Shown here piece by piece: positions 1,281 through 13,451 of a DNA stretch of 13,451 nucleotides; position 1 is the first letter of the stretch, and each line of letters opens with the position of its first letter. Under the pieces are notes generated by a model. The model made no database searches. It was not told the DNA's origin and was given only the letters and a program-made list of their open reading frames with translations. The DNA lies in the IMG/VR virus record IMGVR_UViG_2565956627_000012; one strand, written 5' to 3'. Source of the stretch: a virus (lineage: Duplodnaviria; Heunggongvirae; Uroviricota; Caudoviricetes). Position numbers and translations under genes: made by a program.

Positions 1281-1648
1281 ATAAAACGCTAAATATCGGT
1301 CAAGTTCGTTAATTTTTTATTTTTCAACCATCGAAAAAATTGAAATGCACCCTACTAAACCCTTATTAGCTATTTCTTGATTGTTCCAATACCTGATGGT
1401 TTATCTGTTTGTTTTTAATGAGATAATTCAAGCGTAATGCCAAATGACGACATTTTTTGTTGCGTCGCTTAAAAACTCGTGACACGATTTTAAACACTAA
1501 CGAGCTTCTACGAACCTTAGCGAACAAAGCCTTTAGCAAGGTTGTGTTTTTAATTTAAGAGGTGAAAAAGAATCTAAGTAATATCCGATCTCATATATCT
1601 ACAGCTAAGAGAAAAGTTTATATACGTAATTTTTATGTAGGTTTTTGT

Positions 1649-1858
1649 ATGCGTGAAATAAATGAAGATCGCGTAATCCGTGAGGATGAATGTCGTAAGT
1701 TAACTGGAGTGTGTCGCACTACACGCTACGAACTGGAGAAAAAAGGATGCTTTCCGTCACGTCTTAATCTGGGCGGTCGTTCTGTTGGTTGGCTGCTGTC
1801 CGAGGTTATGGAATGGGTTAAAAGCCGGGATCGCATTAATTCAGGTAAGGCAGCGTAA
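1649..1858 (+). CDS. alpA: AlpA-family (prophage CP4-57 regulatory protein-like) helix-turn-helix transcriptional regulator
   Basis: 69 aa counted from the internal ATG at 1649, with AGG 8 nt upstream; the longer ORF begins with GTG at 1562. The motif 'LTGVCRTTRYELEKKGCFPSRLNLGGRSVGWLLSEVMEWV' matches the AlpA/MerR-like HTH pattern (GGR-x-VGW...E...W), as recalled from family knowledge. Confidence 0.8.
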   Translation: MREINEDRVIREDECRKLTGVCRTTRYELEKKGCFPSRLNLGGRSVGWLLSEVMEWVKSRDRINSGKAA

Positions 1859-1878
1859 AGGGGGAGTATATGGCACAT

Positions 1879-1908
1879 AAAACAAAGGCGACCGGGGGCG
1901 GTCGCCAA
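1879..1908 (-). terminator. Rho-independent terminator for the leftward operon
   Basis: Perfect hairpin GGCGACCG-GGGG-CGGTCGCC at 1889-1908. Read on the minus strand it is followed by the T-rich tract TTTGTTTTAT (complement of 1879-1888). It lies about 60 nt downstream of the minus-strand stop at 1971 and stops read-through into alpA. Confidence 0.5.
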
Positions 1909-1970
1909 TGGGAAAACACTAAACATAAGCACGGGGATGATAGCCGCTATCAGGCTGGTGGGCAATGCAA

Positions 1971-2144
1971 TCAGTCTGGTTCAGTTCGTTGCCATACCTG
2001 CAATGAGCGCTTTTCCCTGTACTCTTTAAGGAATTGCTCAAGGGCAAAAGCACATGACGCGAATCTTTCTGATTCATGCTCTATCTTTCTGCGCCGTCTT
2101 TTCCGTGCCGGTGATAATGTTTTGGTCAATTCTTTATCGGTCAT
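1971..2144 (-). CDS. Small arginine-rich basic protein (hypothetical; candidate nucleic-acid-binding peptide)
   Basis: 57 aa from the ATG at 2144 (complement), preceded by AGGA with a 7-nt spacer; an alternative ATG lies at 2159. The protein contains the arginine-rich motif 'SPARKRRRRKIEHESER'. It is the second gene of a two-gene minus-strand operon with a downstream terminator. Confidence 0.4.
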   Translation of the reverse strand: MTDKELTKTLSPARKRRRRKIEHESERFASCAFALEQFLKEYREKRSLQVWQRTEPD

Positions 2145-2201
2145 TGTGTTGTCCTGCATAGCAATGCGCCGTAATACCTTACACCACGGCGCTGGTGATG
2201 G

Positions 2202-2381
2202 TTACTCCTGCTCTTTGGCTTTGCGGCGCTGGCGGCGTTTGATCTCGCCTTTTGCGGCAGTAACTAAAAAACCAGCGGTACTTTCGCCAGGTTCTTTAAG
2301 TTGCTCAATATCATCCATTACTTCATGTGGGATTCTGACAGTTGTCATTTGTGATTTTGCGTTCTTTGCACCAGTTGCCAT
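2202..2381 (-). CDS. Ribbon-helix-helix-like small DNA-binding protein (putative repressor/antitoxin-like)
   Basis: 59 aa from the ATG at 2381 (complement), with AGGAG 8 nt upstream. 'TTVRIPHEVMDDIEQL' fits a beta-strand followed by helix A, and 'GESTAGFLVTAAKGEI' fits the G-x-S/T turn plus helix B of the RHH (Arc/CopG/MetJ) fold. The C-terminus is basic. The longer six-frame ORF (to 2549) lacks an RBS and has an atypical N-terminus. Confidence 0.5.
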   Translation of the reverse strand: MATGAKNAKSQMTTVRIPHEVMDDIEQLKEPGESTAGFLVTAAKGEIKRRQRRKAKEQE

Positions 2382-2411
2382 TTCTGGATCTCCTAAAAAT
2401 TGGTGTATGTC

Positions 2412-2496
2412 AGTATACGCAAAAAAAATGATAAAAAAAGGCTTGAAGTGTATTTCACCAGTGAGTAAATTAAAAAGCAAAGGTGAAATACACCTG
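2412..2496. promoter_or_regulatory. Divergent promoter region with paired 12-bp inverted operator-like sites
   Basis: GTGTATTTCACC (2448-2459) and its reverse complement GGTGAAATACAC (2482-2493) are separated by 22 bp; 13 of 15 positions match when extended. A rightward promoter candidate is TTGAAG (2443-2448), 17 bp, TAAATT (2466-2471). A leftward -10 candidate is TATACT (complement of 2412-2417) upstream of the RHH gene. Confidence 0.35.
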
Positions 2497-2574
2497 AAAG
2501 AGCAACGCCCCGCAGTGCTCGCAACACATGCAGGGCGTCTAACCACCAACGATAGAAAGAGTATCGAGGTAGCT

Positions 2575-2778
2575 ATGAGAAATCATACCACACACCCGCA
2601 AGGGCGGGACTCGCACAACCTGAATAAATATATCTGGCGTTTTATCGCCCTGAGCACGGCACAACCGCGCGTGATTACCATTGAGGCCACCAGCGAACAG
2701 GAAGCACGCCAGCAATCCCCGGCTGGCTGCGTGATGGTATTCGCCGCCCGTATTCGTCAGGGGGTGAGTCATGCATAA
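2575..2778 (+). CDS. Hypothetical small protein (67 aa), first gene of the rightward replication operon
   Basis: ATG at 2575 with GAGG 5 nt upstream. Its stop overlaps the next gene's start (ATGCATAA). This is the 3' in-frame part of the long six-frame ORF 1870-2778, whose upstream portion is Cys/Ser-rich and antisense to RBS-supported genes. Confidence 0.4.
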   Translation: MRNHTTHPQGRDSHNLNKYIWRFIALSTAQPRVITIEATSEQEARQQSPAGCVMVFAARIRQGVSHA

Positions 2779-2998
2779 AATACCCTTTGATGTTCTTGTT
2801 CATTCTGAAAACGCATTAATCCGCGCAAAGGAAATGGACGCATTACTACTTAAGTTAATTGATGTGCCGGAAAGTGGCGATGAATCTGATTCAATGATGT
2901 TTTCTGCCGTGCGTACGCTATTAACGCCTGTTATTAATGAATTAAATACAGTGATGGCAATTCACGAGAATAATAAAGCGCAGCACACCGGAGAATAA
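2771..2998 (+). CDS. Hypothetical acidic small protein (75 aa)
   Basis: Start overlaps the upstream stop, indicating translational coupling. Composition is coding-like. No recognisable motif. Confidence 0.5.
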   Translation: MHKIPFDVLVHSENALIRAKEMDALLLKLIDVPESGDESDSMMFSAVRTLLTPVINELNTVMAIHENNKAQHTGE

Positions 2999-3003
2999 AA
3001 AAC

Positions 3004-3303
3004 ATGAAAAATAAAAATTCTGGCGTTACTGCCAGCGGCCCCGCTCGTCCTGAATTTATGAACGGCGATATTTACCGCGATAAATATGGCGGCATGGTAA
3101 CGATTAAAGGCGTGGCAGAACGGCGCATCACCTACCGCCGTGAAGGCTACGAATATGATTGCGTGATGCCTGTTTATCAGTTTCGGCGTGATTTTTCTCT
3201 GGTACAGGCAGCGCCCCGCAGTAAACCAACCAGCAGGGAGAAAGCACGCGCCAATATTCAGGAAATAAAAAAGATGCTTAACGTATTCAGGGGTAAAAAA
3301 TGA
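3004..3303 (+). CDS. Hypothetical protein (99 aa) immediately upstream of, and coupled to, the primase gene
   Basis: ATG at 3004 follows the upstream stop by 5 nt. Its stop overlaps the primase start (ATGA at 3300). Basic C-terminus. Confidence 0.5.
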   Translation: MKNKNSGVTASGPARPEFMNGDIYRDKYGGMVTIKGVAERRITYRREGYEYDCVMPVYQFRRDFSLVQAAPRSKPTSREKARANIQEIKKMLNVFRGKK

Positions 3304-5048
3304 AACTGGCACCGAACGTAAAAAAACAGCCACGCGGAATAAAACACAAAGACACAGAGGTAATTATTTTCGCGGGTAGTGATGCCTGGTCGCACGCGAA
3401 ACAATGGCAGGAGCAGGATGGCCCCGCATCCGGCGATAATGTGCCGCCTGTGTGGCTTGGGCCAAATCAGCTTGCCGAACTTGATGCGCTGAAAATTGTT
3501 CCGGATGGGAAAAAACGCGTAAGGCTGTACCAGGCCGGAGAACTGGATTTAGTGGAGACCAAAAAGATCGGTCAGAAGCTGGCGGCGGCAGATATTCAGG
3601 ATGCGAATTTTTACCCCGAAGGGGTGCACGGACAGAAATGTGAGAACTGGCGGCGCTATCTGAATGCTGAGCGTGAAAATATTGCCGCAGGGATCACCAT
3701 GCCGGAACAGAAAAAATCACAACTTTCACAGATGGCAGACAGTGAACGGGCACAGCTTCTTGCTTCCCGCTTTGATGGTGTCTGCGTCCATGCAGAAAGT
3801 GAAATCGTTCACGTATGGCGTGACGGGGTATGGTGTCCGGTCAGCACAATGGAACTGAGCCGCGAAATGGTGGCGGTTTATTCAGAACACGGGGCCACGT
3901 TCAGCAAGCGTGCAATTAATAACGCCGTTGAAGCGTTAAAAGTTATTGCTCAGCCAATGGGGGAGCCGTCCGGTGATTTGCTGCCGTTTGCCAATGGTGC
4001 GCTTGACCTGAGAACAGGGGAATTTTCCTCTCACCAGCCGGATAACTGGATCACCACACACAACGGCATTGAGTACACGCCGCCAGTACCAGGTGAGAAT
4101 ATCCGCGACAACGCGCCAAACTTTCATAAATGGCTTGATCACGCTGCCGGAAAAGACCCGGGCAAGATGATGCGCATATGTGCCGCGCTATACATGATTA
4201 TGGCGAACCGGTACGACTGGCAGATGTTTATTGAGGCCACCGGAGACGGCGGGAGCGGCAAGAGCACTTTCACGCACATAGCCAGCCTTCTGGCAGGGAA
4301 ACAGAACACCGTAAGCGCTGAGATGACATCACTCGATGATGCTGGTGGGCGTGCGCAGGTTGTCGGAAGTCGGCTTATTGTCCTGGCAGACCAGCCGAAA
4401 TATACAGGCGAAGGCACGGGCATCAAGAAAATCACGGGCGGCGACCCTGTGGAGATTAACCCGAAATATGAAAAGCGATTCACGACCATAATCAGGGCTG
4501 TGGTACTGGCGACCAACAACAACCCGATGATATTCACGGAACGGGCCGGAGGCGTGTCACGTCGTCGCGTGATTTTCCGTTTCGACAATATCGTCAGTGA
4601 GGCCGAAAAAGACAGAGAACTACCGGAAAAAATCGCGGCTGAAATCCCCGTCATTATCCGCCGCTTGCTGGCGAACTTTGCCAATCCTGAAAAGGCACGG
4701 GCTTTACTGATTGAGCAGCGTGACGGTGATGAAGCACTGGCAATAAAGCAACAGACGGATCCGGTTATTGAATTTTGCCAGTTCCTTAACTTTCTGGAAG
4801 AAGCACGCGGCCTGATGATGGGCGGCGGCGGTGACTCTTCCAGGTACACGACCAGAAACAGCCTTTACCGCGTCTATCTGGCGTTTATGGCGTATGTCGG
4901 CAGGAACAAGCCGCTGAACGTGGCTGAGTTCAGCAAAGCTATGAAGCCAGCGGCGAAAGTTTACGGACATGAATATATAACGCGCAGGATTAAAGGGATT
5001 ACGCAAACCAACGTGACAACAACAGACGACTGCGACGCGTTTTTATAA
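3300..5048 (+). CDS. Replication protein: primase / SF3-type helicase (phage-plasmid primase, P4-family-like C-terminal domain)
   Basis: 582 aa. Walker A P-loop 'GDGGSGKST' lies in the central/C-terminal part, and a Walker B-like 'RLIVLADQ' follows. Size and position (after alpA, before an iteron array) match satellite replication-initiator (Pri-Rep) genes. Confidence 0.85.
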   Translation: MKLAPNVKKQPRGIKHKDTEVIIFAGSDAWSHAKQWQEQDGPASGDNVPPVWLGPNQLAELDALKIVPDGKKRVRLYQAGELDLVETKKIGQKLAAADIQDANFYPEGVHGQKCENWRRYLNAERENIAAGITMPEQKKSQLSQMADSERAQLLASRFDGVCVHAESEIVHVWRDGVWCPVSTMELSREMVAVYSEHGATFSKRAINNAVEALKVIAQPMGEPSGDLLPFANGALDLRTGEFSSHQPDNWITTHNGIEYTPPVPGENIRDNAPNFHKWLDHAAGKDPGKMMRICAALYMIMANRYDWQMFIEATGDGGSGKSTFTHIASLLAGKQNTVSAEMTSLDDAGGRAQVVGSRLIVLADQPKYTGEGTGIKKITGGDPVEINPKYEKRFTTIIRAVVLATNNNPMIFTERAGGVSRRRVIFRFDNIVSEAEKDRELPEKIAAEIPVIIRRLLANFANPEKARALLIEQRDGDEALAIKQQTDPVIEFCQFLNFLEEARGLMMGGGGDSSRYTTRNSLYRVYLAFMAYVGRNKPLNVAEFSKAMKPAAKVYGHEYITRRIKGITQTNVTTTDDCDAFL

Positions 5049-13161: not shown

Positions 13162-13451
13162 CGAGAATGAGCGAAACCGAACTACTAAAAATAATCCGCC
13201 GTGTTACCGGAGCCAGCCAGACAGCAGACAAACAGGAGGCCACGCAGCCGGACAGCGTGATAGCCGAAAATTACGCGCGTGTGGTGGCTGAGGTGATGCG
13301 CCGTGACGGTATTGAGCTTAACGGCGTGGATATGCGCAACATACGAACCAGAGTCCTTGAGTTGCTGGCATACCGTCGCCGTTCTCAACAACGGAGGGAG
13401 AGCGCGAAAAATACTTATCAGTGGAAGAAGCCGGAACGGTTGCGGCGGTAA
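13158..13451 (+). CDS. Hypothetical protein (97 aa) translationally coupled to terL
   Basis: ATG at 13158 overlaps the terL stop (ATGA); an alternative ATG lies at 13167. The stop TAA is the last three bases of the window. Basic C-terminus; no recognisable motif. Confidence 0.45.
   Translation: MTRMSETELLKIIRRVTGASQTADKQEATQPDSVIAENYARVVAEVMRRDGIELNGVDMRNIRTRVLELLAYRRRSQQRRESAKNTYQWKKPERLRR

Follow-up and report, generated by a model that had tools for sequence, protein, structure and literature searches.

What keeps a phage satellite of a Gram-negative host silent until its helper phage acts? The window, as we call the whole 13,451-nucleotide stretch of DNA analysed here (IMG/VR virus record IMGVR_UViG_2565956627_000012), is a capsid-forming phage-inducible chromosomal island (cf-PICI), a satellite of Escherichia coli phage, and the locus that raises the question lies at its positions 1879-2574. 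Gram-negative PICIs were described as "transcribed unidirectionally and rightward" under AlpA, a helper-induced activator that is required for the induction of EcCICFT073 and sufficient when over-expressed (reporter work), and whether they have a global repressor "is unclear" (Fillol-Salom et al., 2018; PMC6092414). A first-pass annotation had described at 1879-2574 a leftward unit of transcription that ends in a terminator of its own and had proposed for it a master-repressor switch, in departure from an AlpA-only model. The features it described are all present in the sequence, a switch of this kind does depart from the published AlpA-only model, and the comparative evidence of geometry, covariation and cassette exchange favours the switch. 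With a probability of about 0.7, we read 1879-2574 as the maintenance (immunity-like) switch of the cf-PICI, with a small ribbon-helix-helix (RHH) protein as its putative repressor. The computed genes, fold, promoter and operator geometry and protein-operator covariation carry this reading, and the elements at its centre are the following:

2202-2381, minus strand: gene of a 59-residue RHH protein of the YlcI/YnfO family, the candidate satellite repressor (open reading frame, hidden Markov model match and AlphaFold2 model).
2417 to 2412, minus strand: -10 element TATACT of the leftward promoter P_L (CAGTATAC on the plus strand).
2443-2471, plus strand: rightward promoter P_R, with -35 TTGAAG at 2443-2448, a 17-nucleotide spacer and -10 TAAATT at 2466-2471.
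2402-2413, plus strand: candidate operator O1, GGTGTATGTCAG, which abuts or overlaps the P_L -10 and the predicted P_L start.
2447-2459, plus strand: candidate operator O2, AGTGTATTTCACC, in the P_R spacer, beginning on the last -35 base.
2482-2494, minus strand: candidate operator O3, GGTGTATTTCACC, at about +5 to +17 of P_R.

The RHH-like reading frame and ribosome-binding site noticed earlier are both there, the latter as a Shine-Dalgarno sequence AGGAG (2394 to 2390, minus strand) 8 nucleotides before the ATG. The protein matches the NCBIfam YlcI/YnfO profile (NF041551) over residues 9-50 with 64 bits against a cut-off of 30 (E = 9e-18), and PGAP annotates the gene under this name in RefSeq genomes; the PHROGs entry gives an unknown function. 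Homologues of 55-100% identity occur across Enterobacterales, and the ratio of nonsynonymous to synonymous polymorphism (pN/pS) is 0.40 when the gene is read in its own frame, against 0.52 for the mirror frame and 1.06-1.48 for the four others, which points to purifying selection on the gene. The AlphaFold2 monomer model (mean predicted local distance difference test score, 87.5) has residues 11-18 extended and helices at 19-28 and 35-58, the N-terminal strand and two helices within about 45-50 residues that mark the beta-alpha-alpha architecture. By this model the protein has the RHH fold that had been guessed from the letters alone. The RHH proteins listed for it are the Rv0298 antitoxin (5.9), CopA_SO (5.8), AmrZ (5.2), ORF56 (5.1), HicB (4.9), omega (4.7) and Arc (4.6) and, below Arc, TacA, TraM, ParD, PutA, TraY, NikR, PcfF and ArtA.

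We found no paper that assigns YlcI/YnfO a function, in a search that left most subscription journals outside, so that an earlier description is possible; a 2026 survey names "YlcI/YnfO" only among cf-PICI accessory genes (PMC13612085). The K-12 proteins YlcI (DLP12 prophage) and YnfO (Qin prophage) have the same NCBIfam family name and size class as the satellite protein, and ylcI is likewise a small leftward gene beside a rightward phage operon. YlcI is, however, only about 20% identical to the satellite protein over the first 25 residues, and its gene (16252-16446 of locus L049) adjoins a lambda-like cos/nohD region, whereas the satellite gene faces an icd-primase operon. Some E. coli satellites have a 101-residue version of the protein, with a C-terminal extension of roughly 42 residues (...GEIARRQAEGSGEN...), found in loci L035, L036, L037, L040, L041 and L045.

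We compared 48 loci of up to 8 kb each from many Enterobacterales (32 at one genome per species, 15 from E. coli across the identity range, and EcCICFT073; L numbers denote loci), which contain 47 distinct intergenic sequences. The divergent region of roughly 190 bp has a fixed skeleton. The P_R layout, a -35 of the form TTGA(C/A/G)(G/A), a spacer of 17-18 nucleotides and TAnnnT, recurs in all 47 intergenic sequences, the -35 always standing the same distance from the RHH ATG, and a CAGTATAC-like P_L element is present in 45 of 47 loci. A generic promoter scan missed P_R because only 8 of 12 consensus positions match. O1, O2 and O3 have in common an 11-bp motif, GTG-N5-CAC (copies of 11-13 bp), whose five central bases vary between loci and are identical at all sites within one locus. 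The operator-like sites that had been noticed over the rightward promoter of the replication operon are thus borne out. They had been described as two 12-bp inverted sites; the inverted pair is real (arms 2443-2459 and 2482-2498, the first overlapping the -35 TTGAAG), but the copies number three, the third lying at 2402-2413. O3 is direct in some specificity classes and inverted in others, the window among the latter, and the O2-O3 spacing is 23-36 bp. At no more than one mismatch the class-specific core is almost confined to the intergenic region in the 48 loci, with five stray copies across about 300 kb of flanking sequence, a number close to what chance would give. The RHH gene is divergent from the replication operon and candidate sites lie on that operon's promoter, the arrangement looked for in a PICI master repressor. 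A fourth operator-like site, GGTGCATTTCAA at 1340-1351 (minus strand) in the int-alpA spacer upstream of alpA, has two mismatches and no counterpart elsewhere, and we attribute it to chance.

Protein and sites vary together. Across the 48 loci, 12 operator cores pair one-to-one with 12 variants of RHH residues 10-18, the strand predicted to contact DNA, and the hypervariable residues 11-17, which lie on this strand, track the operator core:

SQMTTVRIP: core GTGTATTTCAC
SQS(V/I/L)T(A/V)R..: core GTGTAAGACAC
SQQLNARFP: core GTGCGATTCAC
SQQIVSRVP: core GTGGCATTCAC
SQKMSARVP: core GTGGGTGCCAG
SQKLQARAP: core GTGGAGTCCAC
SKKLEARVP: core GTGGCTGACAC
SQALKARVP: core GTGGGCCACAC
SLQVSVRLP: core GTGGTGTTCAC
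SQLTTVRVP: core GTGTGTTTCAT
SQTVAARVP: core GTGTTTAACAC
SKRIDARVP: core GTGTCCGACAC

Ser10, Arg16 and the flanking GTG and CAC are invariant across the classes. EcCICFT073 was retrieved after the table had been drawn up and carries SQALKARVP with GTGGGCCACAC, as predicted. This prototype Gram-negative PICI has the same module (L048 243-1053, or CFT073 chromosome 1380242-1381052), with an ORF2 homologue (ORF2 being the second leftward gene), the RHH gene, three GTGGGCCACAC-class operators and an icd-like gene; its current RefSeq annotation has C_RS30120 (YlcI/YnfO) and C_RS30800 (hypothetical, 57 residues) between alpA and the icd-like gene, both late-added tags.

The pairing holds where the rest of the element has been exchanged. 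Locus L002, from E. ruysiae, has in common with the window only a 343-bp cassette (2203-2545, 98.8% identity) made up of the RHH gene, the promoters, the operators and the first leader hairpin, and its Int, AlpA, Icd, DUF4222 and primase proteins are only 25-75% identical to those of the window. The Icd N-terminus of L039 is identical to the window's and its operator class is different; L034, L036 and L037 have one AlpA protein in common and three operator classes; L037 and L040 have ORF2 in common and different operators. Operator variants therefore track none of Icd, AlpA, primase or ORF2. The 101-residue RHH variants of L037 and L045 have a common C-terminal part and differ in both strand and operators, and one Pectobacterium brasiliense genome carries two satellites (L007 and L027) of different classes. 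That reading head and operators are exchanged as a cassette, and that a single species has many classes, suggests heteroimmunity between co-resident satellites.

We infer DNA binding, the sign of the regulation and a link to AlpA-dependent induction. P_L would drive the RHH gene, a spacer hairpin, ORF2 and a one-way terminator (1877-1906), and P_R, divergent from it, would drive a structured leader, the icd-like gene and then the primase, capsid and terminase genes. RHH dimers would read the three GTG-N5-CAC copies through their N-terminal beta-ribbon (residues ~10-18). Occupancy of O2, in the P_R spacer against the -35, and of O3, just past the P_R start, would keep the replication and packaging operon off, and occupancy of O1 on the P_L -10 and +1 would let the repressor limit its own synthesis by negative autoregulation. 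More speculatively, O2 occupancy might in addition stimulate P_L, in the manner of lambda CI at PRM, because P_L has no recognisable -35 and the O2 centre lies about 48 bp upstream of the predicted start. As strand and all three cores change together, in at least 12 classes, co-resident satellites would not cross-repress.

Several observations weigh against a repressor switch of this kind. On the side of the fold, Pfam DUF3950, the family name borne by K-12 YlcI, gave no match to the 59-residue protein at E <= 1, Foldseek and PDB sequence searches with it were weak or empty, and the AlphaFold2 run was of a monomer, which lacks the dimeric beta-ribbon and in which DSSP assigns no strand. On the side of the code, no more than about 110 bp separates the operators from the beta-strand codons, so that linkage alone would give some association; the argument rests for this reason on the concerted change of the three sites and on breakpoints inside the gene (L037 versus L045). 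In the GTGTTTAACAC class (L034, L038 and L047) the P_L copy (O1) is absent, and an extra copy lies directly upstream of the P_R -35. Finally, with AlpA both required and sufficient for induction, any repressor must be overridden by AlpA.

The remaining elements of the leftward unit lie downstream of the RHH gene:

2166-2192, minus strand: GC-rich spacer hairpin GCGCCGT...ACGGCGC, 7 bp, between the RHH gene and ORF2 (alignment and centroid fold).
1971-2144, minus strand: ORF2, a putative basic helical protein of 57 residues with RKRRRRK followed by the conserved core ERFA(P/S)CAFALEQFLKEY.
1877-1906, minus strand: intrinsic terminator of the leftward operon, stem-loop 1887-1906 and T-tract 1877-1886.

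The hairpin terminator ascribed to the leftward unit was confirmed at 1887-1906 with its T-tract. The stem has 8 bp, 7 of them GC, and only on the minus strand does TTTGTTTTAT follow it; the terminator is one-directional because the plus strand has no T-run after the hairpin. The terminator is kept in related loci, and L045 keeps hairpin and T-tract with a different stem sequence. The spacer hairpin is also conserved, its variants being G-U wobbles that fit minus-strand RNA only, and could be a processing or attenuation site.

The 57-residue arginine-rich peptide with RKRRRRK exists at the length first proposed. The open reading frame list gives 62 residues (1971-2159), but only the inner ATG (2144) is conserved in the 15 E. 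coli loci (71-100% nucleotide identity). ORF2 is probably a real gene by the sequence comparisons, although an explanation that we hold unlikely makes it the mirror image of the plus-strand frame that runs over it. That frame, too, is open in 15 of 15 loci, PGAP leaves ORF2 out in several genomes, and the ORF2 C-terminus tolerates frameshifts (P0129, P0136, P0138). Yet the inner ATG is preceded in every one of the 15 by CAGG(A) about 7 nucleotides upstream, the ORF2 frame is open in all of them with every indel a multiple of 3, and its pN/pS (0.50) is the lowest among the six frames, against about 0.8-1.1 for the plus frame outside the overlap with minus-strand genes. A core E-R-F-A-P-C-A-F-x-L-E-x-F-L-K-E-Y with an invariant Cys is kept down to 64% identity. 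Inside the FAPCAF core, codon 30 (2055-2057) of the window's ORF2 specifies Ser, at a position taken by Pro in at least 90% of the aligned homologues.

The two-gene module of the first-pass annotation did not hold up as a conserved pair. The ORF2 family comprises 29 clusters, all from Escherichia or Shigella, a profile search of 1.84 billion representatives gave 9 matches, and ORF2 is shuffled independently of the RHH and operator class; it is probably a dispensable passenger, an accessory gene restricted to these two genera. A role of the arginine patch in RNA binding and antitermination likewise found no support, as the patch, usually kept, is lost in L042 and relocated to the C-terminus in P0153. 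A fold search with ORF2 was uninformative, since all it brought up were long helices and coiled coils of a generic kind, including bZIPs. In L013 (Raoultella) and L027 (Pectobacterium), unrelated reading frames of 87 and 78 residues start at the RHH stop codon, which suggests that the place after the RHH gene is a cargo slot.

Could the RHH protein bind the sites in another role, as an activator of P_L or P_R, an accessory factor of excision or replication, or a centromere binder like omega or ParG? Proteins with this fold are known in every one of these roles (TraY, ParG/omega and NikR are examples from the list of related folds), and the O2 position and the lack of a P_L -35 are compatible with P_L activation. 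We nevertheless think such a role improbable: in all classes O2 lies in the P_R spacer and O3 past the start, where bound proteins normally block RNA polymerase, the window has no partition ATPase gene, and copies of the motif are absent near the primase gene and elsewhere in the flanks.

A type II toxin-antitoxin system, in which the RHH protein would be an antitoxin that autoregulates its operon and ORF2 a small toxin, had also been offered as a reading, and it has in its favour the order of the genes, with the RHH gene first and the small protein second, and one operator on the operon's own promoter. It failed the test of co-occurrence, since ORF2 adjoins the RHH gene in no locus outside E. 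coli, including the E. ruysiae locus with a 100% identical RHH protein, and reassorts freely among RHH classes. The rarity of its family in the profile search, the lack of any toxin, Pfam, NCBIfam or PADLOC family match to ORF2, the 57-nucleotide hairpin-bearing spacer, which implies that the genes are not translationally coupled, and the position of two of three operators on the divergent replication promoter instead of the operon's own all make a toxin-antitoxin pair very unlikely. Equally remote is the notion that AlpA, the Icd-like protein, the primase or a host protein reads the repeats and that the RHH match is linkage only, for although the operators adjoin the RHH N-terminal codons and would co-segregate with them, for each of AlpA, Icd, primase, Int, DUF4222 and ORF2 there is at least one locus pair at odds with the operator class, a host factor cannot account for 12 specificities within one species, and the concerted change of three sites needs a linked variable reader, the RHH gene being the only linked gene and its variable part the predicted DNA-contacting strand.

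A possible way for AlpA to override an RHH repressor lies on the opposite strand, which is listed here together with the start of the rightward operon:

1870-2778, plus strand: stop-free frame of 302 codons in phase with icd, starting at GGGGGAG-N3-ATG.
2505-2569, plus strand: 5' leader of the rightward operon, conserved in structure and situated past O3 and ahead of the icd ATG.
2575-2778, plus strand: icd-like gene (NCBIfam NF033153), first in the rightward replication and packaging operon, its stop codon overlapping the next gene's ATG.

The stop-free frame begins with a Shine-Dalgarno sequence and ATG 11 nucleotides after the alpA stop and runs antisense to ORF2, to the RHH gene, to the two spacers and to the entire promoter, operator and leader region. 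From 1870 to 2778 it contains no stop at all, where the other two plus-strand frames contain 14 and 18. When the shuffling was confined to the three segments without minus-strand coding, 19 of 20,000 shuffles came out stop-free. Among 44 distinct loci, 35 have no intergenic stop in the icd frame, against averages of 4.6 and 5.3 for the other frames; 3 further loci have a stop-free frame across the region in a phase other than that of icd, and in 5 others (L021, L035/36/45, L042/44) the frame ends 15-26 nucleotides before the icd ATG. The open stretch measures 200-540 codons across loci and in most of them starts at an ATG that has a good Shine-Dalgarno sequence and lies on or next to the stop codon of the plus-strand gene before it (alpA, BRO-N, antA or another).

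The codons of the minus-strand genes are biased accordingly. A plus-strand stop can arise within the RHH gene only where a His, Gln or Tyr codon follows a codon whose third base is T (T or C for Tyr). T was found at 0 of 143 such positions able to carry it, whereas the usage of the same codon families in the rest of the gene predicts 36.5. Pro18 is encoded by CCA, CCC and CCG and never CCT, Arg50 by CGA, CGC and CGG and never CGT, and GGG, though rare elsewhere in the gene, precedes CAN in 12 of 12 cases; ORF2 has forbidden codons at 0 of 54 positions. With a pN/pS of 0.77-1.08 for the plus frame in close pairs where no minus-strand gene overlaps, these counts indicate that selection, which is seen across the 48 loci, acts on the openness of the frame and not on its protein sequence. 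The same values disfavour the long plus-strand frame as a functional N-terminal domain of Icd.

Transcripts driven by AlpA would pass the one-way terminator, stay translated and so escape Rho; they would cross the cassette antisense, disturb P_L and the repressor mRNA, and feed the replication operon. That the open frame is a translation corridor for such read-through is an idea we advance tentatively, and the fuller account, in which an overlooked heteroimmune RHH repressor silences Gram-negative PICIs and cf-PICIs and is relieved by AlpA-driven antisense read-through, is as a whole doubtful. On the plus strand at 1984-2008, inside the stretch antisense to ORF2, lies a weak terminator-like hairpin followed by GCTTTTCCCT; if real, it must be read through by AlpA-driven transcripts.

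The open frame also leaves its mark on annotation. In near-identical genomes, PGAP calls a plus-strand "Icd-like pseudogene" over ORF2 instead of ORF2, and because the frame is open it yields further plus-strand "pseudogenes" over the leftward genes (Icd-like, BRO-N, hypothetical and ash; L001 3422-3701, L034 1294-1549, L044 1039-1486, L047 1571-2089) and N-terminally extended Icd-like proteins in L043 and L046. We reject the Icd-like, BRO-N and ash calls over ORF2 as true pseudogenes and regard them as by-products of the open frame.

The leader consists of a two-part hairpin (2505-2538), an invariant single-stranded UCUAACCAC and a small hairpin (2550-2566) that adjoins or encloses the Shine-Dalgarno sequence GAGG (2566-2569). 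In a comparison of 43 distinct sequences, compensatory changes were seen in 10 of the 14 base pairs; the paired share of cells is 92%, as opposed to 29-42% with slid partners, none of 500 shuffles reached the observed covariation, and the fold has a z-score of -3.65. No Rfam family, C4 included, was credited at its gathering score in the window or at E <= 5 in 1500-3100, where weak matches to ToxI, R1162-antisense and IMES-1 (E 1.3-3.3) were taken as chance. We also rejected the leader as a C4/CI-like antisense RNA, since it matches no model and its loops are not conserved.

The assignment of the window to the cf-PICIs rests on its gene content. Pfam matches identify an integrase (1-1239), AlpA (1650-1858), a D5_N primase (3300-5048) and SSB together with an HK97-type capsid protein, S78 protease, portal, HNH endonuclease, TerS and TerL, so that the integrase, alpA and primase genes stand beside the capsid and packaging set that defines a cf-PICI. 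No tail or lysis genes occur up to position 13451, where the window ends inside the element. The published EcCIEDL933 has the same gene set (10.1101/2022.09.08.507074). Positions 1500-3000 are 98% identical to DNA adjoining cspD in E. coli ST131-type (sequence type 131) chromosomes, and the region was matched in 1767 of 5426 complete E. coli genomes (about a third), with at most 6 copies per genome. Satellites of Yersinia, Pectobacterium, Xenorhabdus, Enterobacter and other genera carry the module as well, in the recurrent order int, alpA, optional cargo, the leftward RHH gene and then the rightward icd-like to DUF4222 and primase genes. Neither the RHH protein (tblastn) nor the control region (blastn) had a match in 50,697 phage records, and in PADLOC none of the three proteins RHH, ORF2 and Icd corresponded to a defence system.

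Systems in which an RHH repressor acts through operators at divergent promoters are of a kind already known. In the immI region of phage P22, the RHH repressors Mnt and Arc act at the divergent promoters P_mnt and P_ant. The satellite resembles it in its small RHH repressor, its divergent promoters and an operator that overlaps the promoter of the opposing operon, but the proteins have no detectable sequence relationship, and the satellite has three spaced candidate sites for single dimers where P22 has one operator for a tetramer. The satellite switch also faces the replication and packaging operon instead of an antirepressor gene, and its specificity is hypervariable, unlike that of P22 immI. 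In lambdoid immunity (cI/cro, OR/OL; heteroimmune phages), as in the satellites, reading head and operators are swapped as a unit (343 bp in L002) and many specificities occur within one species; the lambdoid proteins are, however, of the helix-turn-helix class, and the satellite has no identified counterpart of Cro and no SOS-cleavable domain. Omega of pSM19035 and CopG-type proteins bind as one RHH dimer per short asymmetric repeat, direct or inverted, as O3 is; omega sites are 7-10 contiguous heptads, whereas the satellite has three sites of 11-13 bp that lie 23-45 bp apart. In the c4-icd-ant operon of P1 immI, translation of icd is reportedly needed for transcription to reach ant. The satellite's rightward operon similarly opens with a structured RNA and then an icd-like gene, and the logic of icd translation is the one proposed here for the plus-strand frame, but the satellite leader has no Rfam C4 match, antisense target boxes were not found, and P1 immI has no RHH protein, which is the control protein of the satellite. 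Stl of the Staphylococcus aureus pathogenicity islands and Rpr of Gram-positive PICIs (PMC6092414) occupy the equivalent place, divergent from the replication operon, and have the job proposed here, keeping the island silent until the helper phage acts. They differ from the satellite protein in fold, which is not RHH, and int is not co-transcribed with the satellite RHH gene; induction of Gram-negative islands goes through AlpA, and no helper-phage antirepressor for the RHH protein is known.

What is new is an overlooked candidate regulator of Gram-negative PICIs and cf-PICIs, a specificity code of 12 classes and a stop-free antisense frame that is under selection. The question of whether these islands have a repressor becomes testable with a concrete candidate, exact operator coordinates and the 12-class table. 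The stop-free frame accounts for the recurrent plus-strand "pseudogene" mis-annotation and may be a rare case of selection for translatability and not for a product. Heteroimmunity, if true, would explain how several satellites share one cell.

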